DNA from: an uncultured bacterium
GTDB taxonomy: Bacteria > Armatimonadota > HRBIN16
Direction: 5' to 3'
Assembly (NCBI GenBank): GCA_964579145.1
Contig: CAZOGB010000006.1
Coordinates: 3,003 to 67,002, forward strand
DNA length: 64,000 nucleotides
Part shown: piece after piece, positions 7,807 through 29,017 of the stretch
How positions within the stretch are numbered: the first letter of the stretch is position 1
Layout of the letters: the number at the start of each line of letters is the position of its first letter
The notes under the pieces: model-generated
What the model saw: the letters and a program-made list of their open reading frames with translations, nothing else
Databases searched by the model: none
What the model was told of the DNA's origin: nothing
Program-made: the position numbers and the translations under genes

Positions 7807-7932
7807 CGCCTCTCCTCACACGCAAATGCTCTGGCTTATTGTATCCCATCTCTGCCCCGAAGCAAAGGGCTGGTTCGGTGTAATGCATTCGGTGCAAAAA
7901 GCGTCTATAATAATGGTGAGAGGAGGAGAGGG

Positions 7933-12808: not shown

Positions 12809-13342
12809 CTACTTGCGTCTGCGTCGCAGAGCCAGCAGACCCACACCAATGCCCAATCCTGCCATTGTTGCAGGCTCTGGCACAACCGGCAGAGCGGTAA
12901 TCTGTCCGCGGATTTCGCCGCCCGGGTAGGCGGTGGTGTGGACATTGATGTACGTGTTACCGCTGAGCAGGTTTGCCTCTTCCGCCGCGGGGAACGGTGC
13001 ACCGGTTATCACCTTCATCAGCTGTCCGCCCAGCACGGCGTAGCTGCTGCCGTTGCCGATGTTGAAAATGACTGGACCGTTCACCCCCGGGGGAGCGCTG
13101 TGGATGTGCGAGCCGGTAACATCGCCCTGCGACAACCCGGTGATGGAGATAGCCAGGTTGATGGTTTTCGTCACGTCATCGTAGCTGCCGAAGAGCACTC
13201 CGCTCGCACTGGTGGAAACAGGCGGTACCTCCTGCGAACCGGTCAGGGTCGCCTGCAGGTACCACAACCCTGCGCTCGATGGCAAAGCCATCAGGCTTAA
13301 CAATGCCATCAGCACAGCGAACCGAATACTGAGTTTCTTCAA
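12809..13342 (-). CDS. CHRD-domain protein with C-terminal PEP-CTERM sorting signal
   Basis: LTGSQEVPPV...GSHIHSAPPGVNGPVIF match CHRD-domain motifs. The C-terminus VPEPATMAGLGIGVGLLALRRRRK is a PEP-CTERM signal (PEP motif, TM segment, basic tail). The likely start is TTG at 13342, which gives MKKLSIRFAVLMALLSLMALPSSA after an AGGAGG Shine-Dalgarno, rather than the ATG at 13366 that sits upstream of the Shine-Dalgarno. Confidence 0.75.
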   Translation of the reverse strand: MKKLSIRFAVLMALLSLMALPSSAGLWYLQATLTGSQEVPPVSTSASGVLFGSYDDVTKTINLAISITGLSQGDVTGSHIHSAPPGVNGPVIFNIGNGSSYAVLGGQLMKVITGAPFPAAEEANLLSGNTYINVHTTAYPGGEIRGQITALPVVPEPATMAGLGIGVGLLALRRRRK

Positions 13343-13429
13343 ACGACTGCCCCTCCTTTCAGGCATCGGGTTTTGCGCATACCCCCCATTCTGGGATACC
13401 AGAGAAATCTGCCCTTTTCAACGAGAAAC

Positions 13430-13453
13430 AGCCTGCCCAATGTTGGGCAGGCT
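13430..13453 (-). terminator. Putative terminator hairpin after the CHRD gene at 13468..13989
   Basis: 11-bp stem agcctgcccaa/ttgggcaggct with loop tg. The minus-strand downstream sequence GTTTCTCGTTG is only moderately T-rich. Confidence 0.35.
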
Positions 13454-13467
13454 ATCTCTCCCATCCG

Positions 13468-13989
13468 TTAAGCACGCCGCCGTCGCAGGAACAACAAGCC
13501 AAGCCCTGTTGACAGTCCGACCAACGTGGCCGGCTCGGGCACAGGAATCAGCTGCCCCCGGATGTCCTTCGTACCGCCGGGAGTATGCACGCGGATGTAG
13601 GTATTGCCTGCCAGCAGGTCGGCTTCGTAGGCAGATGGGAACAATCCACCGGCGATAAATCGGGAGAATACTGTGCCGCTGCCTGACCAGGATGCCCCAC
13701 CGTCCAGGTCATAAATGGCAGGTCCGTTCGTGCCGGGCGCTCCCACATGGATCATTGCGCCAACTATCTCGCTCTGGGTCAGCCCAACCTCGTACACGGC
13801 GAGGTTAAACAGCTTGGATACGTCATCGTAGCTCATAATGGCCTGCCCAGTTGCCGGGCTACTGGTGGGCGGCACGACCTGACTGCCGGAGAGGTTCGCC
13901 GTGAGCACCCATACGGTAGCGCTGGATGGCAATGCCACCACCGCAAGCAGGGTCATGAGCACTCCTAAGCGCGTGCATAATCGAAGCAT
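13468..13989 (-). CDS. CHRD-domain protein with C-terminal PEP-CTERM sorting signal (tandem paralog)
   Basis: LSGSQVVPPT...GAMIHVGAPGTNGPAIY is a CHRD domain. The C-terminus PVPEPATLVGLSTGLGLLFLRRRRA is a PEP-CTERM signal. ATG at 13989 (MLRLCTRLGVLMTLLAVVALPSSA) is 6 nt after AAGGAGGAG. The ATG at 14007 lies before the Shine-Dalgarno. Confidence 0.75.
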   Translation of the reverse strand: MLRLCTRLGVLMTLLAVVALPSSATVWVLTANLSGSQVVPPTSSPATGQAIMSYDDVSKLFNLAVYEVGLTQSEIVGAMIHVGAPGTNGPAIYDLDGGASWSGSGTVFSRFIAGGLFPSAYEADLLAGNTYIRVHTPGGTKDIRGQLIPVPEPATLVGLSTGLGLLFLRRRRA

Positions 13990-14064
13990 ATTCGCTCCTC
14001 CTTTCATATCGTCATGGATGGTAAAAACTACTCCCGATGCGAGCTAAGCTCCCACCTTACTTGT

Positions 14065-14093
14065 AGTATACACCCTGTACAAAATGCTGTCAA
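14065..14093 (-). promoter_or_regulatory. Sigma-70-type promoter for the CHRD gene at 13468..13989
   Basis: On the minus strand the sequence reads TTGACA, then a 17-nt spacer gcattttgtacagggtg, then TATACT. The spacer contains TGTACAGG. Confidence 0.55.
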
Positions 14094-14161: not shown

Positions 14162-15043
14162 CTATCCTTTCACCGCTCCTAACTGGATGCCGCGCACCAG
14201 AAACCGCTGGGAGACCACAAACAGTATCACCAGCGGAATGATGTTCATCACGCTTGCCGCCATAATCAGGTTGGTCTGGCGTCCGTAGTTGGTGTCGAAG
14301 TAAAGCATGCCGATGGGCAGGGTGCGCAGGTGATCGCTCTTGATGAGGATGAGGGGCCAGAAGAACGAGCCGTAGTTGCCCATGAAGGTGAAAATGGCGA
14401 GCGTAATCAACCCGGCACGCGAGAGGGGCATGATAACGTCCCAGAATATCTGCCAGTGCGATGCGCCGTCTATTTTCGCCGCCTCGTCCAGCGAGGGCGG
14501 AATGGTGAGCATGAATTGACGCAGGAGGAACGTGCCGAACGCGCTGAACGCCGCAGGCACAATCAGCCCGATGTAGGAGTCCAGCAGGTGAAGCCACACC
14601 ATCAGCGAGTAGTTGGGGATCATGGTGACCACGCCCGGTATCATCAGCGTAGCAAGATAGAGGCGGAAGACCGTATCGCGCCCTTTCCACCGAAGACGGG
14701 CGAACGCATAAGCCGCCATGGCACTGGTGAGGCACTGCAGAAAGGTCACCCACGCGGCAATAAACACGCTGTTGAAGTAATAGCGGGCAAAGGGAATCTG
14801 CTCGAACACCCGCGCGTAGTTTTCGGGATGCCACACGGTGGGCAGGGGGTTAATCTGCTCGACCTCTTCCAGCGGCTTGAAGCTGGCAAGCACCATCCAC
14901 ACAAACGGCGCGAGCGAGGTCAACGCCATCAGCGTCAGCGCGAGGTGGCTGAGCATCCCCTTCACGAGCGAACGTCGCCCCCGCCCGCCGACGGGTGCTG
15001 TCTCCGCTCTGCCCAAAACTGCTCCCTGTGCCTCTTCTACCAT
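14162..15043 (-). CDS. Carbohydrate-type ABC transporter permease (MalG-like)
   Basis: EAA-loop region AAKIDGASHWQIFWDVIMPLSRAGLITLAIFTFMGNYGSFFWPLIL is typical of CUT1-family permeases. Six TM segments. Confidence 0.85.
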   Translation of the reverse strand: MVEEAQGAVLGRAETAPVGGRGRRSLVKGMLSHLALTLMALTSLAPFVWMVLASFKPLEEVEQINPLPTVWHPENYARVFEQIPFARYYFNSVFIAAWVTFLQCLTSAMAAYAFARLRWKGRDTVFRLYLATLMIPGVVTMIPNYSLMVWLHLLDSYIGLIVPAAFSAFGTFLLRQFMLTIPPSLDEAAKIDGASHWQIFWDVIMPLSRAGLITLAIFTFMGNYGSFFWPLILIKSDHLRTLPIGMLYFDTNYGRQTNLIMAASVMNIIPLVILFVVSQRFLVRGIQLGAVKG

Positions 15044-15050
15044 CGCAGGC

Positions 15051-16022
15051 TTAGTAGCTGACCTCCTTCGCGCCGAACTTCCAGTTAATTAACGTGACCA
15101 CGAAGATAATCGCAAACAGAATCCACGAGATAGCCGAAGCATAGCCAATCTGGAACTCCTCGAAGGCTTTGGTGTAGATGTAGTAGGTCAGGGTGGTGGT
15201 CGTGCCGGCGGGTCCGCCGCCGGTCATCACCCTTGCCTGTTCAAAGCCGCCCTGCAACCCGCCGATGAAGCTCATCACCACGATGAAGAAGGTGGTGGGC
15301 GCCAGCTGGGGCCAGGTGACGTTGCGGAAGACCGCCCATTTGCCCGCGCCGTCCAGCTGTGCGGCTTCAATCAGCTCCTGGGGCACGTTGGTCAGCGCCG
15401 CCAGATACAGAAGCATGTTGTTGCCTCCGATGGCAATCCAGATGCCCATGATAATCAGCGCGTCGCGTGCACCCAGCCCAAACTGTTTCATGCTCATGCG
15501 CACCTGCTCCACTTCCAGCCCCAGCAGGTTGGCGGTGGAAAGCAGCCACTCAGGCGCCTTCACCTTCAGCCCCAGCGCCTCGCTCACCGCGTTGATCATG
15601 GCGTTAATCGGACCGAAGTCGGGGTTGTACAATGCCTTCCAGAGAATCATCAACGCCACGCCGCTGGTGATGCTGGGCAGATAGAACAGCGTGCGGTACA
15701 CCACGATGCCCCGCAAACGCTGACTGAGCAGAATCGCCAGCGCCAGTGAGCCTGCAATCGCCACCGGCATGCCCAGCATCAGGTAGAGCGTGTTGATGAA
15801 ATAGAGCCAGAACTGGGTGTCGTGCATCAGATCGACGTAGTTACCGAAGCCTATCCACTGGAAGGGTACAGTGCGCTGGAGGTTCCAGTTCGAGAAGCTG
15901 ACCACCAGCGAGAACAGCACGGGTCCCGCCGTGAACACCGCGAAACCGAGAAAGTTCGGCAGGAGAAACAGCCACGCGATGGCACGTTCGTCCCTGGCTT
16001 TGCGGGCGGGCAGGACGCTCAT
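15051..16022 (-). CDS. Carbohydrate-type ABC transporter permease (MalF-like)
   Basis: [39 protein letters not shown]. Start is assigned to the ATG at 16022 ([12 protein letters not shown]...), which overlaps the stop of the upstream gene as ATGA. The listed longer ORF adds an arginine-rich, implausible N-terminus. Confidence 0.8.
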
Positions 16023-16501
16023 AGTTTGTAACCGAACCGGCGCAGAAGCTGCTTGCGTTCCTGAATGTCCTGCTCGGTCTCCACGCCTTTGGTCTTGATG
16101 CCGTCGATAACGCCCAGCACGCCTCGTCCCTGCTCGGTTTCGGCGACGATGACCTGCAGGGGGTTGGCGGTGGCGCAGAAGATACGACATACCTCGGGTA
16201 CCGCCTTCACCGCGTTGAGCACGTTAATTGGGAAGCCGTCCTTCAGGAAGATGATGAACACGTGCCCCGCCGACAAAAGCAGTGCGTTCTTCTTCGCGAG
16301 CTCTATCAGCTCCGCATCGTTGCCGCTGTAGCGCACCAGCGCAGGTCCCGACGACTCGCAGAAGGCAAGTCCAAACTTCAGGGATGGTGAAGACCCTGCC
16401 AGCACCTCATGCAGGTCTTCCACCGTCTTGATAAAGTGCGACTGTCCCAGGATCAGGTTGTAGGCGTTGGGATTTTCAATCTGTACGACATGGATCTCCA
16501 T
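16019..16501 (-). CDS. Adenosine-specific kinase family protein (Pfam Adenosine_kin-like)
   Basis: 160 aa. [34 protein letters not shown]...[21 protein letters not shown] matches the conserved N-terminal half of the adenosine-specific kinase family. The stop overlaps the next start (ATGA). Confidence 0.65.
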
Positions 16502-16575
16502 CTGTCAACCCTCCCGCGGTATGGATTCCGCCCTTCGATTCGCGCAGAGCGAGCGGACTCCTGCTGAGCCTCGGC

Positions 16576-17937
16576 TTACCGCTGAGCCTGCGCCTGCACC
16601 AGCGCGTGGTAGCGTTTGCGCAGTTCGGGGTCGCGCTGGATTGTCTTCTGAATCTCCTCGTTAATCTGGCGCGCGGCGGTGCGCAGGGCATCCGCTGCCG
16701 ATTTCTGGTTGCTCTTCACCAGGTCTAACTGCTTGTTCAGGATGCGCATGACGGTCTGCCCGTTGACGAAGGGGCTGATTTCGTCTGGCACGGCGTAGTT
16801 CATCGCGTCGCGCCACACGGCGTTGAAGTCCTCTTCCGGGTAGGCGGGGTCATGCAGGTATTTTTCGGTATACGAGTACTTCTTCACCGGCGCGAGGGCG
16901 TCCGCCTGATGGTTGATCAGCTCGTTATACTCTTTGCTGGCGAGGTACAGCACGAACTTCAGCGCGTGTTGTCGGCGTGGGCTGTTGCGGTTGATGAGAG
17001 ACGCGCGCCCATAGCCGCGGAAGACGCGATAGGGTCCGTGTGGCGATTCTACTGCGCCCAGCTTCAGTCCCTGATAGCTGCGCAGGGTACACAGCCACCA
17101 GCGACCGCCCAGCGCCATCGCGCCCTTCTTCGCGCCGAACCAGGTAATCGTGCCCGAACCCCAGCCTCCCTGCGTCGCCATCGCCGCCTCCTCCACCGGG
17201 CTGGGCATCACGCGATACTTATAGATGAGGTCCTGCATGAACTGCACCGCCGCAATCGCCTGCGGACTGTCGATGATACAGCGCGTGCCGTCGGGTGTGT
17301 ACAGCCGTCCGCCCCATTGCAGGACGAAATGATACCAGTTCCACCAGTCCATCAGAAAGCCGAATTGTACTGGTCTGCCGCTTCGGTCGCGGATGGTCAG
17401 TTTCCGGGCGACCTGCAGAAACTGTTCCCATGTCCACGGCCCTTTGGGATAGGGCACGTTGTATCGGTCGAAGATATCCTTGTGGAACCAGATGGCGTTG
17501 ACCGCCGCGTTAGTGGGAAAGCCGTACACGCGACCCTCGTGGATGATGTTGGGATGCACCGCCCGCCAGACGTCGTTTTCCACGTCGATGCCCGCCTTTT
17601 TGAGTTCGTCGGTGATGTCCCAGGCAATCCCGGAGCGCACGTAGGCAGAGAGTTGAAAACCGTCGTAACAGTCGAAGATGTCGGGTCCCACGCCTGCCAG
17701 CGACTGCACGATGACCTTCTCCATGCCGGTGTTGCTGGGGTCCAGACGCAGGTCATATTCGGGATGCAGTTTGTTGAACAGGGCAATCTGCTCGCGGCGG
17801 GCAGGGTTATCATCGCTGACCCACACCAGAGGGATTTTACCCTGGGCGGTGTCGCGCGGCTGGATACGCCACGCAACCAGCGAGAGCAGAACCAGTACCA
17901 CAAAAGTGCCTGCGAAGAAGTATTTCATGGGAATCAC
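16576..17937 (-). CDS. ABC transporter extracellular solute-binding protein (family 1, sugar-type)
   Basis: N-terminal signal/anchor MKYFFAGTFVVLVLLSLVA and SBP family-1 fold motifs (IPLVWVSDDNP...GVGPDIF). First gene of the operon with the permeases. Confidence 0.85.
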   Translation of the reverse strand: MIPMKYFFAGTFVVLVLLSLVAWRIQPRDTAQGKIPLVWVSDDNPARREQIALFNKLHPEYDLRLDPSNTGMEKVIVQSLAGVGPDIFDCYDGFQLSAYVRSGIAWDITDELKKAGIDVENDVWRAVHPNIIHEGRVYGFPTNAAVNAIWFHKDIFDRYNVPYPKGPWTWEQFLQVARKLTIRDRSGRPVQFGFLMDWWNWYHFVLQWGGRLYTPDGTRCIIDSPQAIAAVQFMQDLIYKYRVMPSPVEEAAMATQGGWGSGTITWFGAKKGAMALGGRWWLCTLRSYQGLKLGAVESPHGPYRVFRGYGRASLINRNSPRRQHALKFVLYLASKEYNELINHQADALAPVKKYSYTEKYLHDPAYPEEDFNAVWRDAMNYAVPDEISPFVNGQTVMRILNKQLDLVKSNQKSAADALRTAARQINEEIQKTIQRDPELRKRYHALVQAQAQR

Positions 17938-18466
17938 CCTTAGTTCCTATCTTTCTACTCCCGATAGCTTTCTCCTCTTACCCCAATGTCCGCCGCAATA
18001 ACCACCCCACAAAGTGAGCGAGTGCAGGAGTCTTTTTGTACCGAAGCCATAGGAAGGCGAGCGGAAAGCCAACCACTGCTCGCTTTTCTCGATGGACAAT
18101 GAGGCGTGTGCTACCGAGGGCGGCCAAGTATGTCCATTGCTTGCCTAGAGACGAGAGATCTGTTGGCAGAATAATAGGTATATCACTGTGTGTCACAGGG
18201 ATGTCGCCGCTTGGGGTTTGTACAGTGTAACTTCTGCTATTCCCTGTACAAGGATGGTCAGATGGAGCCTGATGTGCAGTCAGGAAGGGAAGGGCTTTGT
18301 CTAAACTCGAGATTGAATCCAACACGCTTCAAATCCTCGCTCCACTGTTGGAAGAGGAACAGTTGTTGACAGGGCATGGTCCAGTCCCATATGTCGAAAA
18401 CCAGTTGGCGTTCGTGGTTTTGACCCATTTTCATCCTCCGATAGGAAGAGCCTCCACGTATTGGGA

Positions 18467-18511
18467 CTGTAAAAGGAGTCCTCGTACCACCAACAGGGTG
18501 CGAGGACTCCT
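18467..18511 (-). terminator. Putative rho-independent terminator after the DUF1559 gene
   Basis: 11-bp stem aggagtcctcg/cgaggactcct with a 16-nt loop. The minus-strand downstream sequence is TTTACAG. Confidence 0.4.
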
Positions 18512-18524
18512 ATTCTGCCTGCCG

Positions 18525-19274
18525 TTACATGTCAGGACTCAGGAGGTGGGTAGAGACATAATCCTGAGCCTCTGCTTCAGAGTTCGCCATGTACCAGTTA
18601 TCCCAGGGATTGACCAATAACGGATAGTTATCCGTTAGGTTCCACATCAGGCGCGGGCGTACGGTCTGACTGGACTTCAATGCTTTTGCGTGTCCATCTA
18701 CGAATGTCCAGTTGATGGTCCCGCCGTGTGTTCGCAGAGGGTACCAGGTGTATCCGATGTACCACAGCCCGGCATCGAAGAGCTCGAAGGGCAGCTCTAC
18801 GATGATAATCTTAGACGCAGGCTCTTGGATGCCGGCAAGGGCGAAGGCGCTTTGTCCACTGCCGTATGTCCAGCCGAACACGTACGCGTTCATCGCGTAG
18901 CCTTTGGGGCGGGTGACTGTGCCCCAGCCTCCGGTACGTCCAACAGCCTCGTCTGGACGGGAAGGACAAACGAAGATCTGGTGATTCTTCACATAGGGCA
19001 TTAGCAGGTCGTACCAGATGATGAGGTCGATGCCCCAGTCACTTCGTCGTCCAACCCAGCGGTCATAGTTGGGCATAGGCAACATTTCGTCGTAGTCCTG
19101 CGTGTACATCACCATGCCAAGCCCAAGCTGCTTCGTGTTCGAGAGACAGGCGGACTTTCTGGCTTGTTCGCGTGCGCGTGCGAACACAGGGAACAGAATC
19201 GCTGCCAGTATCGCGATTATCGCGATAACCACCAGCAATTCGATCAGCGTGAAGCCCGAATCTGTGCGTTTCAT
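18525..19274 (-). CDS. DUF1559-domain protein with prepilin-type N-terminal cleavage/methylation signal
   Basis: [63 protein letters not shown] is a type IV pilin-like N-terminus (G|FTLIELLVV). The C-terminal motif is [18 protein letters not shown] at 19274 is preceded by AGGAGGA, and the ATG at 19292 lies upstream of that Shine-Dalgarno. Confidence 0.8.
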
Positions 19275-19323
19275 TGGTTTTTCCTCCTTCATTCGTCCGA
19301 GTTTTTGAGCGTTTCTGTCGCAC

Positions 19324-19488
19324 CTATCTGTGGTCGGGATGTGGCGTTGTTGCCTGCGAAGGCAACGGTGGTAGCCACGGTGGCTTTGCCGGCTCGTACA
19401 GGATGGTCTTGCGCCACACTATTACCGCGATAGCGAGCAACACGATAATCAGGGCAATCCCTATTCCGACGAACCTCTTTTGCTGCAT
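19324..19488 (-). CDS. Small single-TM proline-rich protein (54 aa)
   Basis: Absent from the ORF track because it is under 60 aa. [59 protein letters not shown] lies 7 nt upstream of the ATG at 19488, which is 16 nt after the lacI-family gene stop. Confidence 0.4.
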
Positions 19489-19504
19489 GTGTTTATCACC
19501 TCCC

Positions 19505-20515
19505 TCAGAGATGGGGTGCTGGACCTGTACTTTTCCTAATTACGAGGCTTGTTTGGAATCGACAGATCTGGATTGGTTCAACAGGAGACCGACGCAACGC
19601 CAAAACCATCTCAGCCGCCTTTTGTCCCAGTCCAAAAGCATCTATTCGTACGGTAGTAAGCGGTGGTTCCATCATACTTGCCATTGGCACATCATCATGC
19701 CCTACAATAGAGACTTGTTCTGGCACGCGTCGTCCCAGACTAACAGCGCTAAACATCGCACCAATCGCAAGGTCGTCTTTTCGGGCAAAAATCGCCGTGG
19801 GCGGGTTAGGTTGGGTGAGCAAGTGTCGAGCCGCCGTAGCACCCTCTGCCACAGTGAAGCCGGCAGTGACTACGTTACGTTCCTCAAGAGGCACCCCGTG
19901 CTTCTTCAGCGCCTCTCGGAACCACGTTGGGAAAAGATCATCTTCCCGAGTGCCAATAAAGCCGACACGTCGATGCCCCAAAGAGACCAGCAAATCCGCT
20001 ACTGCCTCCACCCCATGTTTCATGTCCGTTGTAATACATCCTACATAAGGCAAATCGGCTTCGGTGGGTGCTCCGTAAATCACAAAGGGTGTAGCAGGGT
20101 TGGCGAGCTGTTTGATATGCTCACGCACAGGGCTCCAGCCTTTTATCAGGATTACCCCATCTATTGCTGCCGAGCGTACCCATCTGAGCAAGGGAGAATC
20201 TGCACTGTCTAGACGAAACACGTTATCCAATAGTAAGCCGTAACCATGCATATGCAGGGTGGACTGAACGCCTCGTGCAAAGTCCGTGAGAAACAGGTCT
20301 GAAAGGATTTCCTGGTCGGTGTGGTGGAGGGCAATGATGTGGCTTCGTCCCGTGACGAGCTGCTGAGCATGGGGGTTTGGAGTATACCCCAGTTCTCTCA
20401 TGCGCCTCAGCACCATCTCGCGCGTTTTGGCGCTAACTCGCCCTCTGCCACTCAACACGTGCGACACGGTGGTAGGAGAAACTCCTATTAGTTTGGCAAA
20501 TTCCTTGATGCGCAT
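19505..20515 (-). CDS. LacI-family transcriptional regulator
   Basis: The N-terminal HTH MRIKEFAKLIGVSPTTVSHVLSGRGRVSAKTREMVLRRMRELGYTPN is followed by a periplasmic-binding-protein type-1 sugar-binding domain. Confidence 0.85.
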   Translation of the reverse strand: MRIKEFAKLIGVSPTTVSHVLSGRGRVSAKTREMVLRRMRELGYTPNPHAQQLVTGRSHIIALHHTDQEILSDLFLTDFARGVQSTLHMHGYGLLLDNVFRLDSADSPLLRWVRSAAIDGVILIKGWSPVREHIKQLANPATPFVIYGAPTEADLPYVGCITTDMKHGVEAVADLLVSLGHRRVGFIGTREDDLFPTWFREALKKHGVPLEERNVVTAGFTVAEGATAARHLLTQPNPPTAIFARKDDLAIGAMFSAVSLGRRVPEQVSIVGHDDVPMASMMEPPLTTVRIDAFGLGQKAAEMVLALRRSPVEPIQICRFQTSLVIRKSTGPAPHL

Positions 20516-20717
20516 ATTGTATTGAAAAATACAGTAACTTATAGGAAAATCGTTTTGGCAAATTCAATTGTATCCCAAACTCTTCTCTGTGTCAAGGGAT
20601 TAGCGTGATGTTTTCCAAAAAATCAGTAAAAGACTTGGTGGAAATCGGCTGGAGTACTCGGATGGTAATCTCGGGTATACTTTGCTGGGTAACATCTTAA
20701 TATCATCAGGAGGCTGT

Positions 20718-21131
20718 ATGCAGAGAACATTTGTGATGATTAAGCCCGATGGCGTTCAGCGTGGGCTGGTGGGAGAATGCATCCGCCGATTTGAACAGCG
20801 GGGACTGCGGCTGGTAGGGTTGAAGATGCTCGTCCCCTCGCGCGAGCTGGCAGAGCAACATTATGCCGTGCACCGCGAAAAGCCGTTCTACAATGACCTG
20901 GTAGAGTTCATCACCTCGGGACCGGTGGTGGCGATGGTGATTGAGGGACCGAACGCCATTCCGCTGGTGCGCACCATGATGGGGGCGCTGGACCCTCTGC
21001 AGGCACAGCCCGGTACCATCCGCGGCGATTTCACCTGCGACAAGCAGATGAACATCATTCACGGCTCGGACTCGCCCGAGACCGCCGAGAGCGAAATCGC
21101 CCTGTGGTTCAGGGCGGAGGAGCTGCTTTAG
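20718..21131 (+). CDS. ndk: Nucleoside diphosphate kinase
   Basis: [30 protein letters not shown]...NIIHGSDS carries the Ndk active-site His motif. AGGAGG lies 5 nt before the ATG at 20718. Confidence 0.9.
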
Positions 21132-21312
21132 CCCTGCTGGCGGGCTGAAGAAAGCCCTCACCCATGCCTTGGGAACGGTTGCCTCGCTCTCTGATTCAGG
21201 TTGAGGCAGAGGGACCAGAAGTAACACCCAGCTTGTACGACACTGACAGACAATGGGTGCAATATTTGGTAGAGAAGGCGGCGAAACTGCGCAAACGAAC
21301 ACAAAATATTGA

Positions 21313-21387
21313 TGGAGCGGGAGACGGGACTCGAACCCGCGACATCCAGCTTGGGAAGCTGGCGTTCTTCCGCTGAACTACTCCCGC
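21313..21387 (-). tRNA. tRNA-Gly (anticodon CCC)
   Basis: 75-nt cloverleaf GCGGGAG/CTCCCGC acceptor stem. Anticodon stem CCAGC/GCTGG with loop TTCCCAA gives anticodon CCC. T-arm is GCGGG-TTCGAGT-CCCGT, the discriminator is U, and CCA is encoded. Confidence 0.85.
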
Positions 21388-21402
21388 TCACTCTGCAATA
21401 GT

Positions 21403-21431
21403 ATTCTACATCCACTCTCCCGCGTTGTCAA
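21403..21431 (-). promoter_or_regulatory. Sigma-70-type promoter for tRNA-Gly
   Basis: On the minus strand: TTGACA, a 17-nt spacer, then TAGAAT. The predicted start is about 9 nt upstream of the tRNA 5' end. Confidence 0.6.
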
Positions 21432-21482
21432 GACTTCCGCGAGTGAATGTGCTTCGTTTTTTTTGAAAGACCCTCCCACCCC

Positions 21483-21512
21483 TTGACATTCGTGTACAGG
21501 CTGGTGTAGAAT
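21483..21512 (+). promoter_or_regulatory. Sigma-70-type promoter for the GntR/PBP1 regulator gene
   Basis: TTGACA at 21483-21488, an 18-nt spacer ttcgtgtacaggctggtg, then TAGAAT at 21507-21512. The spacer contains TGTACAGG. Confidence 0.55.
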
Positions 21513-21560
21513 ATAGGTACTACAATGTATTATATTGCATGATATTATTATGAGGAAAAT

Positions 21561-22694
21561 ATGGACGACCCGATACTTTACCGACAAATCTACCACGCGC
21601 TGAAAGCGGACATTGCAAGCGGACACTATCCGCCCGGCGCACAGCTGCCCACAGAAACGGAGCTGATGCACCGCTTCGGTGTCAGCCGGGTGACGGTCCG
21701 CCATGCCCTGGCGCTGCTCCAGCGGGAAGGGCTGGTGGTGCGTATCCCAGCAAAGGGCACCTTCGTGCGACACACCGACCAGCCGGCTCCCGCGCCAAAG
21801 CTAATTGCCCTGCTTGCGCTGGATGTGCAGCTGGACTTCTTTGGCAAGCTGGTTCGAGGGGCGGAACAGGAAGCAGCCGCACATGGCTACAAACTGCTGG
21901 TGCGCTCTACCGACAACGACGCCGACAAGGAACGCCAGTGCCTGCTGGAACTGCAATCGCACGTGGCGGGGTTTATCATCGCACCGGCCACAGGTAACCA
22001 GAACCACATGCACTATGGACAACTGCTGGTAAAGGGCGTTCCGTTCGTGTTTGTGGACCGCTACCTGCCCGAGTTCAACGTGGATAGAGTGACATCCGAC
22101 AACGTACAGGGGGGATACCTTGCCACACGCCACCTTCTGGAACTCGGACATCGCCGGATCGGGGTGATTTCCGCGCGAAAAGCCACCACCTGCACCGACC
22201 GGTTGCAGGGGTATCAACAGGCTCTTGAAGAGTTCGGTGTACCGTTTGACCCCGTGCTGATAGCACATGCCATCGGCAAGCGGCGCGACGGCTGGGATGA
22301 ATATCTGTACCAGGGCAGGATACAAACGGAGGCACTGCTCAAACTGCCTAACCCTCCAACTGCCCTGTTCGCGATGAACGACCTGCTTGCAGTCGGTGCG
22401 TTGAGATATTTGCGTGAGAGGGGTATCGCCGTGCCTGAAGAGATAGCGCTGGTCGGCTACGACGGCATCGAGCTGTCCGAACTGGTCAGCCCCAGCCTGA
22501 CCACAGTCAAACAGCAATCCCTGCGCATGGGCGCGGAAGCCGTACGGCTACTGGTGCGCCGCATTCGTCACCCGGAACAGCCTGCGCAACATGTGGTGCT
22601 GCCAGTAGACCTGCACGTTCGTGCATCCACTGTTGCGTCGACGGCGATAGTCCAACCCGTGATGACCGCAGCATCCCTAAAAGGAGGTGGTTAG
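21561..22694 (+). CDS. GntR-family HTH regulator fused to a LacI/PBP1-type sugar-binding domain (AraR-like architecture)
   Basis: The N-terminus YRQIYHALKADIASGHYPPGAQLPTETELMHRFGVSRVTVRHALALLQREGLV is a GntR winged HTH. The remainder is a periplasmic-binding-protein-like I effector domain. Confidence 0.8.
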   Translation: MDDPILYRQIYHALKADIASGHYPPGAQLPTETELMHRFGVSRVTVRHALALLQREGLVVRIPAKGTFVRHTDQPAPAPKLIALLALDVQLDFFGKLVRGAEQEAAAHGYKLLVRSTDNDADKERQCLLELQSHVAGFIIAPATGNQNHMHYGQLLVKGVPFVFVDRYLPEFNVDRVTSDNVQGGYLATRHLLELGHRRIGVISARKATTCTDRLQGYQQALEEFGVPFDPVLIAHAIGKRRDGWDEYLYQGRIQTEALLKLPNPPTALFAMNDLLAVGALRYLRERGIAVPEEIALVGYDGIELSELVSPSLTTVKQQSLRMGAEAVRLLVRRIRHPEQPAQHVVLPVDLHVRASTVASTAIVQPVMTAASLKGGG

Positions 22695-22787
22695 GCGAGC
22701 ATATCTTCTGTTACCTGTCCATGCCGTGCTGTGCGCTTTGAAACCCTGAAGTTATCCCTGAACGCTGTACCAGGAGGTGCAAGGAGC

Positions 22788-23774
22788 ATGTCTCGCAAGG
22801 CTTTCACGCTGATTGAGTTGCTGGTGGTTATCGCGATTATCGCGATTCTGGCGGCGATTCTGTTTCCCGTGTTCGCCCAGGCGCGGGAAAAGGCGCGCCA
22901 GGCAACCTGCACCAGCAACATGAAGAACATCGGAACTGCCTGGGCAATGTACGCGCAGGACTACGACGAGACCGGGTGTCCCATGTGGGTCAAGAGCAAC
23001 CTGACGCGGGGATGCTTCCCGGTGGTAGACCCGAACTTCCGCGCACCTTACACCGGCACGCCGTGGGGACAGTACTGGCCTGACCTCATCTATCCCTACG
23101 TGAAGTCAGGACGAGCGGCAAACTATGACGCACAGGGGCGCCCTGTCTCCAAAGGTAACCGCGGGGTGTTCACCTGCCCCACCGGAGATGCGCTGATTCC
23201 TGCTGTTGGTGGCGAGAGCGGGTGGGGTTCGCTGACCTACGGCATCAACCAGAGCAACATCAACGGCGACCCCATCAACCCGGAGAGCGCAGGAGCAGCA
23301 GCTGGAGGTGGACCGGATTTCCTGTGCGGACAGGACCCCGGTTGCCAGGGCTGGGGTTGGGGCTGTGCGAAGGGCGCTCAGCTCGCTCGGCTGACCCACC
23401 CGGCGGATTCTATCGTGTTTATGGAGGGACCGGTGGGCGCCGGACCCATGTTCGCCGAGTGCTGTGACATGAGCTCCTACCCGGGCGACCGTGCCACCAT
23501 CCTCGCGAAGATGGCGGCCGCGTATCCGGCGGAAGGCGGTTTCCCCGCGGGCTATCATCCCAACCGTCCGCTGAAGCGTGCCAAGACCGACCCCAACTTC
23601 TGGGTGATGGAAAACGGTCAGCTGAACGAGGACGGTACCGTCATGCCCGTTCAGCGCTCCAACGACCGCGCCATCCATCCGCATAACGGGGGTTCGAATT
23701 ACGTCTTCGCGGACGGGCATGTGAAGTTCCAGCGGGATACCTATATGCGTCAGCATACCGCCTCGTCTGACTAA
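22788..23774 (+). CDS. DUF1559-domain protein with prepilin-type N-terminal cleavage/methylation signal
   Basis: [61 protein letters not shown]. The C-terminal motif is [19 protein letters not shown] at 22788 follows AGGAGGTGCAAGGAG. Confidence 0.8.
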
Positions 23775-23836
23775 CGCGCAGGTGCTCTCCCTCCGCGTGA
23801 GGGGGAGCACCCTCTTCACAACGGGAGGTGTATCCG

Positions 23837-24139
23837 ATGCCTCAGACTATCTATCGAGGAAACAGAGCGCCAGAGCCGGGATGGCGCAGGGAAGTCAGCC
23901 CGGGTGTTGCCGTGCTGGCAGGAGTGATTCTGCTGGTTTTTATCCTGTTCCTTGTGCACCATTTCATCACGCCAGTAATTCCGCAGAAGCGCGTCAGTCA
24001 GGAGCAGGCGTGGCAGCAGAAGCAGCAGGAACTCCAGCAACGGTTGCCACAGGGCGGATGGGTCTCGCCCGCGCCCGGAATGCCGCCCGTGTACGTGCCC
24101 CCGAGCGGACAGGCTGGAACCATGGCGCAGGGACGTTAG
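23837..24139 (+). CDS. Small single-TM Gln/Pro-rich protein (100 aa)
   Basis: ATG at 23837 follows GGGAGGTG. One TM helix (VAVLAGVILLVFILFLVHHF) is followed by a Q-rich then P-rich tail (PAPGMPPVYVPPSGQ). Confidence 0.4.
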   Translation: MPQTIYRGNRAPEPGWRREVSPGVAVLAGVILLVFILFLVHHFITPVIPQKRVSQEQAWQQKQQELQQRLPQGGWVSPAPGMPPVYVPPSGQAGTMAQGR

Positions 24140-24560
24140 GAGCGCGGTGTTTCTGACGAATGGGTGAGCTTGAGAGCAGTTCTATCATCAAGATAAGCGA
24201 TGCATTTTCGAGACCCTTCGCTGTGCTCAGGCTGACAAAGGGGGATGCACATGAGTGTCACTAAATGTCATGCGAAAGAATATTTCTGTCATGATGAATA
24301 ACAGCAAAGCATCTCGTAGTTAAAAGACTCTGAGATTCTTCGCTTCGCTCAGAATGACATGGTAAGACGAACAAAACGCCAACAAATACCATGCTGAGCA
24401 CCAGCGACGCCCGTGTGACATCGGGTCTCAGGGTAACGAAACGGAGAGGCTGAAACCAGCGTTAGAATAGCCGCAGGAAGTGTTTCCCTGCCCAGCGAAT
24501 AGAGACACAGTGAAACCTGCCAGGACAGCACGCGAACTGAACACTGTGGGAGACCACTCA

Positions 24561-26492
24561 TTGTTCACGCCGGGAGGTGAGAAACGTGACCGCCATTTCA
24601 GTCTGCGAGCGGTACTGATTGGTTTCCTGTCCTCTCTGCTGATTGCCGCGCTGGACCCCTACGGACTGTATGTGATTCAGGGCTCCTACATGACCTTAGA
24701 CTACAGCACTCCGGCGGCGGTATTCCTCTTCTTCGTGCTGGTAGCGATAGTCAACAGGGTATGGAAACGCCTCAGCCCCCGTACGGCGCTTCAGCCCGCC
24801 GAACTCATCGTTGTTTACACCATGATGATTGTCGCCTGTGTGGTTCCCACGCTGGGGTTAACGGCGCAAATCCTGCCCGTGCTGGGGGCGGTGACCTATT
24901 TTGCGAATCCTGTCAACGGCTGGGAGCGTTTGATCCATCCCCATCTGAACCCCTCACTGGTGCCGCGCGACAGGGAGGCGATACGCCTCTTCTTCGAGGG
25001 CAAACCCGGGGCGTCAGTAGCATGGCAGGTGTGGTTACCGCCCCTTCTGGCATGGGCGCCTCTCATACTCGCCCTCTATTTCGTGATGATTTGCGTGATG
25101 GTGATATTCCGCCGGCAGTGGATGGAGCGCGAGCGTCTGGCGTTTCCGGTCACGCAGTTACCCTTGGAGATGGTGAATGAGGGGTCGCCGCTCCTGCGCA
25201 AGCCGCTGTTCTGGCTGGGGTTCGCCCTGCCGTTCGCGGTGGGCAGTTTGATTGCCCTGCACAACTACGCGCCCTCCGTGCCCGCACCCAGGCTCAATGT
25301 GTATGTGCCCCTTTTTCGCGAGACGGTGAACTGGAGCCTGCGCTTCAGCTTCCCCATGGTCGGCTTCTTCTACCTCGCCAACCTGGACGCGCTGTTCAGC
25401 CTGTGGTTCTTCAACCTATTGTTTATGGTGGTGCGGGGTTACCTGAACATCTACGGGGTGGAGATACACGAAGACCTCGGTGGAGCTTACGGCACGCCCT
25501 ACATTCCCTACAAGTATCTGGGCATGGGCGCGATGCTGATGCTGGTGGTGACAGGGTTATGGGCGGCGCGGGCACACCTGCGCGATGTGCTGAGGAAGTC
25601 GCTCGGCAGAGGCAGGGATGTGGACGACAGCGGCGAGATGTTAAGCTATCCCGTCGCCTTCTGGGGCACACTGCTGGGCTTGCTGGTGATGAGCGTCTGG
25701 ATATGGTGGTCGGGGTTGTCCTGGTGGGGCACGTGGCTGTATCTGCTGTTTATGATGGTGCTGTTTTTCGGTTTAACGCGGGTGGTGGCGGAAACCGGGC
25801 TGGCAGAGGCGGTGGCGGCGATGATAGCGCCTGTGTTCACGGTGGCGGCATTCGGCAGTGTGCCTTTCGGAGCGCGAGGGCTGACCGCGCTGGGGCTGAC
25901 GTGGGTCTATTCTGCCGATATCCGCACAACGGTCATGGCGTCCAGCATCCATAGCCTGTGCCTCGCCGAGCGTACGGGGGTACGTGCACGCCCGCTGTTC
26001 TGGGCAATGGCTCTGGCGATTGTGGTCAGCATCGTGGCGTCGGTGTGGGTAACGCTGGTGCTTGCTTACCAAAAAGGAGGCGTTAACCTGAACGGGTGGT
26101 TCTTCATTAACGGTCCGCAGTTCCCATACAAGTGGGTGGAAAGCAAGATAAACAACCCATCGGAACCCAGCCTCACCGGCTGGTTGCTGACCGGCTTCGG
26201 CGCGGCGGTGATGGGCTTCCTCAGCGCGATGCGTCAGCGGTTCGTGGGATGGCCTTTCCACCCCGTCGGGTTCTGCGTGGGCAGTACGTGGATTATGGAC
26301 GAGCTGTGGCTGACCTGTTTCATCGCATGGCTGTTGAAGTTTCTCATCCTGCGCTTTGGCGGACTGCGCTGGTTCCGGGCGTCCCTCCCCTTCTTCTTAG
26401 GGTTGATTGTAGGACAGTACACTTGCAACGGCTTCTGGCTGGTAATGGACTACTTCAGCGGGGCGAAGGGCAACCAGATTTTCTGGATATGA
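24561..26492 (+). CDS. Large polytopic membrane protein (paralog B of the protein at 302..2233)
   Basis: It shares the motif blocks ERERLAFPVTQLPL, HPVGF and FFLGLIVGQY with paralog A. The preferred start is the in-frame TTG at 24561, which lies 7 nt after GGGAGA. The GTG at 24480 has AGGAAG immediately adjacent, which is too close to act as a Shine-Dalgarno sequence. Confidence 0.55.
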   Translation: MFTPGGEKRDRHFSLRAVLIGFLSSLLIAALDPYGLYVIQGSYMTLDYSTPAAVFLFFVLVAIVNRVWKRLSPRTALQPAELIVVYTMMIVACVVPTLGLTAQILPVLGAVTYFANPVNGWERLIHPHLNPSLVPRDREAIRLFFEGKPGASVAWQVWLPPLLAWAPLILALYFVMICVMVIFRRQWMERERLAFPVTQLPLEMVNEGSPLLRKPLFWLGFALPFAVGSLIALHNYAPSVPAPRLNVYVPLFRETVNWSLRFSFPMVGFFYLANLDALFSLWFFNLLFMVVRGYLNIYGVEIHEDLGGAYGTPYIPYKYLGMGAMLMLVVTGLWAARAHLRDVLRKSLGRGRDVDDSGEMLSYPVAFWGTLLGLLVMSVWIWWSGLSWWGTWLYLLFMMVLFFGLTRVVAETGLAEAVAAMIAPVFTVAAFGSVPFGARGLTALGLTWVYSADIRTTVMASSIHSLCLAERTGVRARPLFWAMALAIVVSIVASVWVTLVLAYQKGGVNLNGWFFINGPQFPYKWVESKINNPSEPSLTGWLLTGFGAAVMGFLSAMRQRFVGWPFHPVGFCVGSTWIMDELWLTCFIAWLLKFLILRFGGLRWFRASLPFFLGLIVGQYTCNGFWLVMDYFSGAKGNQIFWI

Positions 26493-26560: not shown

Positions 26561-26929
26561 ATGCCCATCTATGAATACCGGTGTAATGCCTGCCGAAGGC
26601 GGTTCAGTGTGCTGGTGGGTGTGATTGCGGAGGATGACCCCCTGCAATGTCCCCGCTGTGGGAGTACCGATGCCACCCGGTTGATTTCGCGCTTCGCCCG
26701 CCTGCGCAACGAGGACGACATCATCGACGACATGCTGGACCCCGACAGGATCGGTGACCCCGAGGACCCGAAGACCATGCGCCGCTGGGTGAAGGAGATG
26801 GGCAAGGAGCTGGGCGAGGACTTCGCCGACGAGTTTGACGAGCTGCTGGTGGAGGAAGAGAAGAAAGCTGCCACGGGTGAGGGCGAAGCGAGCGGAGAGG
26901 GCGACGACGCAGGCGATGACCTGGTTTAA
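26561..26929 (+). CDS. FmdB-family zinc-ribbon protein (putative regulatory protein)
   Basis: MPIYEYRCNACRRRFSVLVGVIAEDDPLQCPRCGS carries the CxxC...CxxC zinc ribbon typical of the FmdB family, followed by a highly acidic tail. GGGAGGTGA lies 9 nt upstream. Confidence 0.8.
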   Translation: MPIYEYRCNACRRRFSVLVGVIAEDDPLQCPRCGSTDATRLISRFARLRNEDDIIDDMLDPDRIGDPEDPKTMRRWVKEMGKELGEDFADEFDELLVEEEKKAATGEGEASGEGDDAGDDLV

Positions 26930-28845
26930 CCCCCTTCTGCCAGCACGCGCACATCCCCCACCCGGCGCGTCAGGCGGATGCTGTCAAAATACTCTAACAG
27001 GGGTACCACAAACTTGCGACTGGAGCCGGTGAGGTCGCGGAACTCTCCAACGCTCAGCGAGCCCTTTTCTCGGATCGCCCGGCGCACCAGCTCCGCCAGA
27101 TCCTCCAGCACCTCCCGGTGGAAGAACAGCTCTTCCTCCAATCGCACCAGTTCTCCCATCTCCACCAGCACCTGTATCATCGCCCTCACGGCGTCGGGCG
27201 GCGCGCCTACCTGTTGAGCGATGATGGAGACCGGTGGCGGGGTTGCCTTCCCCTCGCGAATCGCCTGCGCGACGCGCTCTGCCAGACGCTTTTGACGTTC
27301 GTTGAGGCGAATAGTAAAATCTGCCAGCCGCACGACCGCCCCCTGCAGGGCAATCGCGCCCTCCTCCTGCCAGCGCGTCAGCAACGCCTCAAACAGGCGC
27401 GGGGACAGCCCCTTCGCTACGGTGGAGCGCAGCTCCTCGCGGGGTATTCCTGCACGCAGGGGGTTCTGTTGATGGTAACGTTGAAGAGTCTGCTTTGTTC
27501 GCTCCAGCAGGTCCTGCAGTACAGTGCCGGCAAACCACATATCGCCCACACGCCGAGCACGCCCTTCCCGCTCCAGCTGCTGAAGCAAGGTAGCAAGCTG
27601 GTGGGAACCGGTCTCGGCACAACGGGCAAGCTCCCCTGCGTCCAGACCGGCTGGAGACTGCGCCAGTATCGCCAGCACCTTTTGCGCCGGGTCGCCCTTC
27701 AGCAGTGAGTGCAGGCGTTCTATCACCGCAGGGTCAAATCGCCGGTGGCGCGGGGCGTGAGGCTCCAGCACAACGCCTCCACCGATGGTGAACATGGGCG
27801 AGTAGGTGCGGATGACAAAGCGGTCACCGCGTGCCGCAACCAGCGGCTTCTCCAGCCTTACCTGAACCATCCCCTGTGCGCCCGCTTCCAGTCGCTCGCT
27901 CTCCAGCAGGGAGACCCGTCCAATCACCTCTGCCGTGCCCAGATACACCCGTATCCGCGCTCTATGCGCCAGCCCCTTCGCCACGTCGGGAAGCAGAGTG
28001 ACCTGCGCGTCAAAAGCCTGCGTCGGACGGAACAGCCCGGGCGGCGCACACACCATCCCGCGTTCGACCTGCGCTTTCTCAACGCCTGGCAGGTTAATGG
28101 CGACCCGACTGCCCGCTACCGCCTCTTCTACTCTGCGCCCGTGCACCTGTATTTGTCGCGCCCGGGATTGCAGACCCGGCGGCAGCATTTCCACCGCATC
28201 CCCCACGCGCACCCTGCCGCTGACCAGCGTACCGGTCACCACCGTGCCCGCCCCAGCCAGTGTAAACACCCGGTCAATCGGCAGGCGGAACGGGGCATTC
28301 ACCTCCCGCGGGGGCACACGCTCCACCGCCTGTTGAAGAGCAGTCCGCAAATCGTCCAGCCCCTGCCCCGTTACCGCAGAGACCGGAATAATGGGCGAAT
28401 CGCTCAGCGGAGTGTCCCGCAGGAACTGCCTCACGTCGTCGGTCACCAGTTGAAGCCACTCCGCGTCCACGAGGTCGCACTTGGTCAGCGCCACCACGCC
28501 CGCCTTCACGTCCAGCAGGCGCAGGATGTCCAGATGCTCGCGCGTCTGCGGCATGATGCCTTCGTCCGCCGCTATGACCAACAGCACCACGTCCACGCCG
28601 CCTGCCCCCGCCAGCATGTTTTTGAGGAACCGCTCGTGCCCGGGCACATCCACAATACCGACCACCTGTCCGCTGGGCAGGCTCAGCGACGCGAAGCCCA
28701 GGTCTATCGTCATGCCGCGCTCCTGCTCTTCCTTCAGGCGGTCAGGATTGATGCCGGTCAGGGCGGTTATTAGCGTGGACTTGCCGTGGTCCACATGCCC
28801 TGCCGTACCGATAATCACGTGCTTTTCAGAGACTGGCGTATTCAT
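26926..28845 (-). CDS. selB: Selenocysteine-specific translation elongation factor SelB
   Basis: The GTPase domain has the motifs [18 protein letters not shown] and TKCDL. Extended C-terminal winged-helix domains bring the length to about 640 aa, typical of SelB. ATG at 28845 begins [17 protein letters not shown]. Confidence 0.9.
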
Positions 28846-29017
28846 CCGTGCCCTGCTCACGCATGATGTTCTCGCTAACAGTATACCGCCTGCTGGGCAT
28901 CGTGTGCGAGATGGTGGTTTGTCTCCTGCTGAAACACTTTGGCAGGTGATTGACATCCAGCGTCGCATCATGTTATGCTTACAGCAGGCGTGGGCTACTG
29001 CAAGGAGGCTTTAAGAC

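Follow-up and report, generated by a model that had tools for sequence, protein, structure and literature searches.

Genes, promoters and candidate operators of the two units

A 64-kb stretch of DNA from a heat-loving Armatimonadota genome (the window) carries two units, here called module 1 and module 2, in each of which a gene for a regulator with a PBP1 domain is accompanied by a gene for a prepilin-like protein of the DUF1559 family and by a small open reading frame (ORF) for a protein with one transmembrane (TM) helix. All six ORFs were recovered from the ORF list where the original prediction, an earlier note on this DNA, had placed them, and Pfam and NCBIfam agreed with the domains that it had named (Table 1). 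The units are divergent, with module 1 on the minus strand and module 2 on the plus strand, and ndk and the gene for tRNA-Gly lie between them; the tRNA alone was found by an Rfam scan of the region. A motif scan of the window detected two prepilin-type ORFs, which are the two DUF1559 genes, and phmmer detected two PBP1-type regulators, each paired with one of the DUF1559 genes. Since there are only two members of each family in 64 kb and these are paired with each other, chance adjacency is unlikely; the rough chance of both pairings arising at random is ~0.005.

The original prediction had described a single three-gene module present twice, which was not borne out. The order of genes is regulator-small ORF-DUF1559 in module 1 and regulator-DUF1559-small ORF in module 2. 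The identity between the two regulators (29%) is confined to the PBP1 domain, and that between the DUF1559 proteins (37%) lies mostly in the N-terminal helix. Because gene order and the type of helix-turn-helix (HTH) domain differ and the small proteins have no detectable homology, the units represent the same parts list and not one duplicated module. The predicted start codons agree with the gene calls of relatives for the proteins of 249, 328, and 100 amino acids (aa).

Table 1. Positions of the two units and of neighboring features within the window
Feature	Coordinates	Strand	Details
ABC permeases	~15051-16022 and 14162-15043	-	BPD_transp_1
Sugar ABC-transporter genes (whole set)	14162-17937	-	Pfam SBP_bac_1, Adenosine_kin, BPD_transp_1
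Adenosine-kinase-like gene	16019-16501	-	PF04008; between SBP and permease genes
SBP	16576-17937	-	SBP_bac_1
GH35/42-like glycosidase remnant	17978-18434	-	deletion junction 18229-18312; short 5' and 3' remnants
GC-rich hairpin after DUF1559-1	18471-18514	-	18-nt arms, 89% complementary inverted repeat, TTTT tail
DUF1559-1	18525-19274	-	249 aa; N_methyl 1.4e-9, SBP_bac_10 1.3e-10; leader G/FTLIELLVV; H-X9-DG motif
Small ORF 1	19324-19488	-	54 aa; basic N-terminus, one TM helix, KPPWLPPLP tail
LacI-family regulator (lacI)	19505-20515	-	336 aa; Pfam LacI (PF00356) 2e-14, Peripla_BP_3 (PF13377) 5e-32, Peripla_BP_1 (PF00532) 1e-16
Candidate LacI-type operator	20544-20560	-	TGCCAAAACGATTTTCC; directly downstream of -10 box; imperfect palindrome in the window
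Sigma-70-like promoter, module 1	20567-20595	-	TTGACA-17-TACAAT, 11/12 matches; 52 nt upstream of lacI start codon
ndk	20682-21131
tRNA-Gly(CCC)	21313-21387		tRNA scan
Sigma-70-like promoter, module 2	21483-21512	+	TTGACA-18-TAGAAT, 11/12 matches; TGTACAGG in spacer
AT-rich block, candidate operator of GntR/PBP1 regulator	21513-21550	+	between -10 box and Shine-Dalgarno sequence
GntR-HTH + PBP1 regulator	21561-22694	+	377 aa; Pfam GntR (PF00392) 3.8e-24, residues 6-69; AraR-type architecture
DUF1559-2	22788-23774	+	328 aa; N_methyl 9.3e-8, SBP_bac_10; TIGR04294 29.4 bits against cut-off of 19; leader A/FTLIELLVV
Small ORF 2	23837-24139	+	100 aa; MPQxI N-terminus, one TM helix, FITPxxPxR, WQ, PGMPPVYVPP tail
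DUF6785/DUF6784 polytopic membrane protein	24480-26492	+	670 aa; Pfam DUF6785 1e-123, DUF6784 7e-30

The regulator of module 1 belongs to the LacI/GalR repressors by its N-terminal LacI HTH and PBP1 effector domain, and no NCBIfam equivalog (RbsR, CytR, PurR, CcpA, and others) matched it above its cut-off. It differs from LacI/GalR repressors in that the first structural genes that it would control encode a miniprotein and a pilin-like protein instead of an enzyme. The G+C content at third codon positions is 0.51 in lacI versus 0.67 to 0.80 in the neighboring genes, and the G+C content of the module 1 region (18000-21000) is 0.50 to 0.56 versus a window mean of 0.61. In the regulator of module 2, a GntR winged HTH is fused to a LacI/GalR-like PBP1 domain (residues 82-357; Peripla_BP_3 [PF13377], 2e-42; Peripla_BP_1 [PF00532], 5e-28; Peripla_BP_4 [PF13407]), which makes it AraR type. 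AraR of Bacillus subtilis likewise joins a winged HTH of the GntR family to a sugar-binding domain of the LacI/GalR type, and the module 2 regulator shares this chimeric architecture at an autoregulated-looking promoter, but it has no NCBIfam equivalog match and no AraR-like TTGTACGTACAA dyad was found at its promoter.

Both DUF1559 proteins are members of the DUF1559/H-X9-DG prepilin-type family. Each carries a prepilin-type cleavage/methylation motif ([GA]/FTLIELL, with Glu at +5) that was matched by PF07963 (1.4e-9 and 9.3e-8) and, above its cut-off, by TIGR02532. The leader G/FTLIELLVV that had been assigned to both is present in module 1; in module 2 the Gly is replaced by Ala (KA/FTLIELL). 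The DUF1559 domain (PF07596, SBP_bac_10) scored 42.2 bits in both against a gathering threshold of 23.3, with only the first 30 to 65 profile positions aligned. The C-terminal H-X9-DG motif, also claimed for both, is visible in both, with the TIGR04294 model matching DUF1559-2 only, and its H, D, and H positions are invariant in an alignment of 27 sequences. Matches of the DUF1559 proteins to PDB sequences were limited to residues 1 to 60. Despite the Pfam name SBP_bac_10, no similarity to substrate-binding proteins (SBPs) was detected by sequence or by Foldseek.

DUF1559 proteins form a very large family of paralogs, found in Planctomycetota, Verrucomicrobiota, Lentisphaerota, and Armatimonadota, to which no function has been assigned (PMC10632474, PMC8567305). 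Planctopirus limnophila has 68 paralogs, which form its largest paralog group and of which two are essential (PMC10632474). Tuwongella immobilis has 91 members, 25 of which were detected in membrane fractions, and the genes are often flanked by genes for proteins with signal peptides (PMC8567305). Some members are stress responsive in Rhodopirellula (PMC2754498). Our literature searches for DUF1559, H-X9-DG, and PF07596 found no functional study, and no searchable paper was found that links DUF1559 to LacI-type/PBP1 sugar repressors or glycosidases.

The small proteins had been described as sharing one architecture. Each does have one hydrophobic helix and a Pro-rich tail, but no homology between them was detected (BLASTP E value of 0.35; hhalign probability of 31% over 11 TM columns), and they fall in no Pfam or NCBIfam family, giving sub-threshold noise only (HemY_N, MIGRI). 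Small ORF 1, whose Shine-Dalgarno sequence GGGAGGTG lies within the 16-nt gap after lacI, is kept in three relatives (loci L007, L008, and L009) at 93, 57, and 43% identity, with VLL..A...WR and KPP.LPPL invariant across the four loci; its substitutions relative to L008 number 21, 11, and 35 at the first, second, and third codon positions. An exhaustive search for it against 1.8 billion representatives returned a single further cluster at 50% identity, and no wider family could be built. Small ORF 2 has 22 homolog clusters (91 to 142 aa, mostly ~100 aa), the named ones being Armatimonadota hypothetical proteins. Its MPQxI, TM helix, WQ, and GMPP motifs are common to nine loci, and its substitutions relative to locus L090 number 20, 14, and 56 by codon position. 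Because both small ORFs are conserved in relatives, as the original prediction had expected, and their substitutions concentrate at third codon positions, they appear to be real genes under purifying selection, each restricted to a narrow lineage. With the N-terminus predicted to be inside, a single TM helix, and a short periplasmic tail rich in Pro, either small protein might act as a partner anchored in the membrane, or as an assembly factor, for its cognate DUF1559 protein.

A promoter consensus scan covering 13.8 to 24.6 kb of the window found four sigma-70-like promoters with 11 of 12 matches, located upstream of lacI, the GntR-type regulator gene, the tRNA-Gly gene, and the CHRD genes. 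Signal scans found no promoter or terminator between either regulator and its DUF1559 gene, and the intergenic gaps inside the units are 16, 49, and 93 nt, with Shine-Dalgarno sequences. In the 93-nt gap between the GntR-type regulator gene and the DUF1559-2 gene, the Shine-Dalgarno sequence alone is conserved. In two loci from other genomes (L061 and L066), the regulator and DUF1559 ORFs abut or overlap. Because strong promoters stand only upstream of the regulators and none before the DUF1559 genes, we infer that each regulator is co-transcribed with its DUF1559 gene in an autoregulated operon.

At the module 1 promoter, the candidate LacI-type operator is the sole conserved block in the otherwise diverged lacI upstream regions of the four orthologous loci, and it is present once per locus. 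LacI/GalR-family repressors have palindromic operators that overlap their promoters; the block is a dyad-like site of the TGCAAAA-N4-TTTTGCA type just after the -10 box, and the L008 version (TGCAAAAACGATTTTGCA) is a 16/18 palindrome. No second LacI-type operator was found before the glycosidase or ATP-binding cassette (ABC) transporter genes in the module 1 loci. The conserved block resembles what an autoregulatory operator of a LacI-type repressor would look like. Separately, two TTTGCAAAAATCG copies that resemble a half-site of this candidate lie at 4400-4450 of locus L006, upstream of a LacI gene that precedes a DUF1559-2 ortholog. At the module 2 promoter, no intergenic stretch is better conserved between the window and the orthologous locus L092 (the small proteins being 75% identical) than the AT-rich block; no clear dyad was found in it, and it is a candidate operator of the GntR/PBP1 regulator.

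The original prediction had asked whether the regulators bind promoters that contain TGTACAGG. This sequence occurs five times in the window versus about one expected occurrence and lies in the spacers of two strong promoters, those of the GntR-type regulator (21483-21512) and of the CHRD genes (14065-14093). It was rejected as a common operator, being absent from the lacI promoter and having one copy (18243) in deletion-junction DNA; the L092 promoter keeps the -35 and -10 boxes but not TGTACAGG. It also occurs upstream of regulators in L006 and L081, without convincing promoter context. As a separate observation, its sharing by the CHRD and GntR/PBP1 promoters may mark a common regulatory site of those two.

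The terminator hairpin that had been placed after DUF1559-1 exists, but it has a TTTT tail only and was not reported by the terminator scan. L007, L008, and L009 each have a hairpin at this point as well, of unrelated sequence. Because the position is kept while the sequences are unrelated, the hairpin may be a terminator or attenuator that sets the expression of DUF1559 above that of the downstream genes.

Conservation of the units and their recurrence in other genomes

Module 1 is kept in the three relatives L007, L008, and L009 at 97, 81, and 69% identity, and a Chthonomonadetes metagenome-assembled genome (MAG) encodes a protein with 97% identity to DUF1559-1. In all three, lacI orthologs occupy the equivalent position and are followed by a 53- to 54-aa ORF, the DUF1559 gene, the hairpin, and an intact gene for a glycosidase resembling glycoside hydrolase (GH) families 35 and 42 (547 to 570 aa). 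Downstream of the glycosidase are SBP_bac_1 and ABC permease genes in L007 and L008, with the gene order matching that of the window, and unrelated genes in L009. Comparison with L007 by BLASTN showed that about 1.3 kb of the glycosidase gene (L007 10962-12256) is deleted in the window strain; the 5' remnant is a 58-aa ORF (18258-18434) that matches the N-terminus of the L007 enzyme. Module 1 is thus the regulatory head of a glycan-use locus, consisting of a glycosidase and an ABC transporter, of which the enzyme has been lost in this strain. The 83-bp deletion junction also holds an inverted pair, TTGTACAG...CTGTACAA (18218-18251).

DUF1559-2 has about 60 ortholog clusters with 38 to 89% identity (two shorter ones being higher), and the named ones are Armatimonadota, including Capsulimonadales and Armatimonas. 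A small ORF directly follows the DUF1559-2 ortholog in all nine loci examined (L002 to L006 and L090 to L093). The regulator varies, being of the GntR/PBP1 type in L090, where it is an 80% identical ortholog upstream of the DUF1559 gene, and in L092, where it has equal architecture and position, and of the LacI type in L003 and L006. The regulator is facultative for this orthogroup. L092, from an Armatimonadota MAG, repeats the block GntR/PBP1-DUF1559-small ORF-DUF6785/6784-Zn-ribbon-SelB of the window in a different upstream context, and the DUF6785 membrane protein is probably encoded by the last gene of the module 2 block; a literature search on DUF6785 found no functional study. Neither this association nor the glycosidase/ABC locus headed by module 1 had been noted in the original prediction. 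In other Armatimonadota (L002, L003, L005, L006, and L013), FG-GAP/UnbV_ASPIC proteins (~570 to 670 aa), TPR proteins, and an unannotated protein of ~350 aa recur as upstream or downstream neighbors of the orthogroup, and in the lineage of the window the DUF6785 protein stands in place of these neighbors. In L091, a relative that also has no regulator, the DUF1559-2 ortholog is split into ORFs of 216 and 122 aa (7485-8482) by a frameshift or an assembly error.

The link between regulator and DUF1559 gene was surveyed by scanning one genome per species with a profile of 27 DUF1559 proteins, which gave 80 loci from Armatimonadota, Verrucomicrobiota, Lentisphaerota, Planctomycetota, and other phyla; genes were called as naive ORFs (907 genes), and 12 loci lost the index gene to overlapping ORFs. 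Jackhmmer found nine candidate PBP1 regulators, and eight of these were upheld by Pfam, the HTH being of the LacI type in six and of the GntR type in two. Seven of the eight were co-directional and zero to one genes upstream of a DUF1559 gene, compared with 8.8% of all non-DUF1559 genes (odds ratio of ~80; Fisher P = 2.4e-7), and the eighth stood after a DUF1559 gene and before a GH43 gene. The preferential adjacency to PBP1-type regulators on which the original prediction had staked itself was therefore strongly non-random elsewhere. Its proposal of sugar-responsive control gains from this adjacency and from the co-transcribed appearance of the units; as a statement about DUF1559 genes at large, it is limited by the presence of such a regulator at only about 10% of those sampled.

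The regulator-DUF1559 units came from Armatimonadota (three loci), Lentisphaerota (three confirmed loci, plus L061, which Pfam did not confirm), and one unclassified MAG, and LacI-HTH and GntR-HTH versions were both seen among the units of Armatimonadota and Lentisphaerota. None was found in the survey loci titled Verrucomicrobia/Verrucomicrobiota or Planctomycetota. Peripla_BP_3, tied with Peripla_BP_1, was the commonest Pfam family of the upstream neighbors (3 of 61) amid great diversity, with 64 Pfam families among the 61 upstream neighbors and 64 among the 64 downstream neighbors. Large genes within or after the units encoded GH92, GH78 rhamnosidase, alpha-galactosidase, DUF4838, GH42-like, and LamG proteins, and export signals, judged by eye, were present in 7 of the 10 large neighbors scanned with Pfam; the units were usually followed by exported glycosidases. 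The wiring of regulator to DUF1559 gene to glycosidase or transporter is recurrent and apparently undescribed, although the kinds of components are already known.

The conserved synteny sought by the original prediction was found for module 1 in L007 to L009 and for module 2 in L090 and L092, but the small TM neighbor proved to be specific to subfamilies. In the wider survey, a small hydrophobic ORF followed 6.8% of DUF1559 genes versus 2.0% of other genes (P = 0.017). A small TM neighbor was rejected as a general feature of DUF1559 genes, being weakly enriched and a subfamily trait.

Possible roles of the DUF1559 units

We lean toward the reading that modules 1 and 2 are two independent, autoregulated, sugar-responsive operons in which a DUF1559 protein is used as a locus-specific pseudopilin for the adjacent glycan-acquisition genes, and we judge it somewhat probable. 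The analysis established the domains, the order of the genes, where the promoters lie, that synteny is conserved, and that DUF1559 genes are statistically associated with PBP1 regulators and glycosidases; we infer that a sugar controls repression and induction, that the genes are co-transcribed, that the prepilins are processed, and everything that concerns what the DUF1559 and small proteins do. We take the regulators to be sugar sensors because members of the LacI/GalR and AraR families are established to sense sugars through their PBP1 domains. The strong promoter in front of each PBP1-type repressor gene would also drive the genes for a DUF1559 protein and for a small, bitopic membrane protein rich in Pro. 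When the cognate sugar is absent, the repressor would sit on an operator at or beside the promoter; binding of the sugar by the PBP1 domain would release it, allowing synthesis of the DUF1559 protein and of its small partner. The N-terminal helix would insert the DUF1559 protein into the cytoplasmic membrane, a prepilin peptidase would cleave it before the Phe, and a machine resembling those of type II secretion or type IV pili, with its genes elsewhere, would take it up as a locus-specific pseudopilin subunit. This subunit may serve the neighboring glycan-acquisition genes either in the export of the adjacent glycosidase or by holding substrate at the envelope. In keeping with this, DUF1559 proteins of a planctomycete are expressed and associate with the membrane (PMC8567305).

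The pullulanase secreton of Klebsiella, in which pulA and pulC-O, including the gene for the pseudopilin PulG, are maltose induced through MalT, offers a parallel to such an arrangement in that a pilin-like protein with a prepilin leader is under sugar control alongside a glycosidase. It differs in several respects: the loci described here have no genes for a secretin, ATPase, or platform protein, the regulator is a repressor of the LacI or AraR type and not MalT, and, in comparison with PulG/GspG, the DUF1559 proteins fall below the GspG cut-off and have a head unrelated by Foldseek to the solved pilin heads.

A number of observations weigh against a pseudopilin role under sugar control. The GspG model TIGR01710 gave 32.8 and 34.7 bits, far short of its cut-off of 88.85, with the N-terminal helix alone aligning, and the AlphaFold2 model of the DUF1559-1 head domain, with a predicted local distance difference test (pLDDT) score of 92, matched neither pilin heads nor any other PDB fold in Foldseek. 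No type II secretion or type IV pilus machinery gene or prepilin peptidase was found among the 36 window ORFs scanned with Pfam, and T2SSF was 1 of the 61 survey neighbors. About 90% of the sampled DUF1559 genes have no PBP1-type regulator, and neither do the close DUF1559-2 orthologs in L002, L005, and L091. The module 1 glycosidase has no signal peptide in L007 and L008, and DUF1559-1 has stayed intact in this strain despite the deletion in the glycosidase gene; the role of DUF1559-1 therefore cannot be pinned to that one enzyme. The survey itself used naive ORF calls and loci ranked by their similarity to DUF1559-1. Finally, the regulator-DNA and regulator-sugar interactions are predictions.

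Some of these observations would fit an alternative in which the DUF1559 proteins are membrane-anchored or pilus-displayed glycan- or solute-binding proteins, resembling a bindosome, that feed a neighboring transporter, which would be the ABC system for module 1 and the DUF6785 membrane protein for module 2, under the same regulation by PBP1 repressors, instead of being pseudopilins for secretion. The resemblance to the archaeal system lies in a pilin-type N-terminus on a protein encoded beside sugar ABC genes and in a role in sugar acquisition. Membrane transport genes follow both modules, DUF1559-1 and the ABC transporter are intact where the glycosidase gene is deleted, and the apparently cytoplasmic glycosidase of L007 and L008 fits uptake followed by hydrolysis. 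The hairpin after DUF1559-1 also recalls the arrangement in which a hairpin after an SBP gene raises SBP expression above that of the permeases. However, the binding proteins of the archaeal system have canonical SBP folds, whereas the confidently modeled DUF1559 head is unlike the fold of any periplasmic binding protein. In addition, a canonical SBP_bac_1 is already available in module 1, and no ligand site is identifiable. We take a binding role of this kind seriously but consider it unlikely.

A further possibility is that the regulators act on catabolic or transport genes and that the DUF1559 and small proteins are general envelope components, or passengers, with no substrate-specific role. 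The extreme number of DUF1559 genes, the very varied contexts in which they are found, the lack of a regulator at most of them, and the retention of the small partner in the DUF1559-2 orthogroup while the regulator comes and goes would all be expected if this were so. Against it, the sole LacI-type operator candidate of the module 1 locus lies at the promoter that drives lacI, small ORF 1, and DUF1559-1, the regulator is directly before the DUF1559 gene and not before a glycosidase in five of the eight survey cases, and such placement is found again in two phyla and with both types of HTH. It could also be argued that LacI-type regulators and DUF1559 genes are both abundant in Armatimonadota and that two pairs are meaningless; both families are indeed large, and the window itself contributes only two pairs. 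That argument has to contend with the mutual pairing of the only members of each family in 64 kb, with orthologous synteny that persists down to 69% identity, and with the survey statistic. Because the recurrence is position specific and crosses phyla, both explanations lose likelihood; we consider a passenger role improbable and chance adjacency very improbable indeed.

The preferred reading, that of sugar-responsive operons with locus-specific pseudopilins, matters because DUF1559 is among the largest protein families without a function. Wiring to a sugar repressor would make a subset of its members testable as sugar inducible, the association of that subset with LacI- or AraR-type sensors and then with exported glycosidases would indicate glycan acquisition as its biological theme, and a concrete handle is provided in that the inducing sugar of a given DUF1559 paralog could be identified. 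Armatimonadota, Verrucomicrobiota, Lentisphaerota, and Planctomycetota are major polysaccharide degraders. A much broader and speculative extension, which we think doubtful, is that the DUF1559 expansions of Armatimonadota and of the phyla of the Planctomycetes-Verrucomicrobia-Chlamydiae (PVC) group supply large sets of pilin-like adaptors that are substrate specific and sugar inducible, every one connected to a sensor, glycosidases, or a transporter of its own, with a head domain that has no solved structural relative and, in some lineages, with Pro-rich bitopic miniproteins. Together these might form a pilus- or pseudopilus-based counterpart of the polysaccharide utilization loci of Bacteroidota. 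The analogy is functional only: both would consist of a recurrent, compact set of a regulator, an envelope protein, and exported glycosidases present many times per genome, but the phyla and the envelope machinery differ, and neighbor scans of the loci examined reported no SusC/SusD homolog.

Other features of the window

Several features around the two units were recorded in passing. The adenosine-specific-kinase-family gene (PF04008) within the ABC operon also occurs in L007 but is missing from the corresponding place in L008. A gene for a GH116 beta-glucosidase (10130-12757) and the ABC operon enclose two tandem genes for CHRD-domain proteins (12809-14007), one of which has a PEP-CTERM sorting signal. 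A second DUF6785/DUF6784 paralog (677 aa) is encoded at 200-2233 and is followed by a 931-aa protein without a Pfam family. Genes for SelB and SelA (26926-28971 and 30765-32207) flank a gene resembling GH57 branching enzymes, with no tRNA-Sec detected in the window. A dispersed GC-rich palindromic repeat, CCTCTCCCCGCGTCGGGGAGAGG, which is similar to repetitive extragenic palindromic (REP) elements, occurs at several intergenic sites, namely, 63318-63521 of the window and 1134-1251, 5509-5547, and 7542-7780 of L007.

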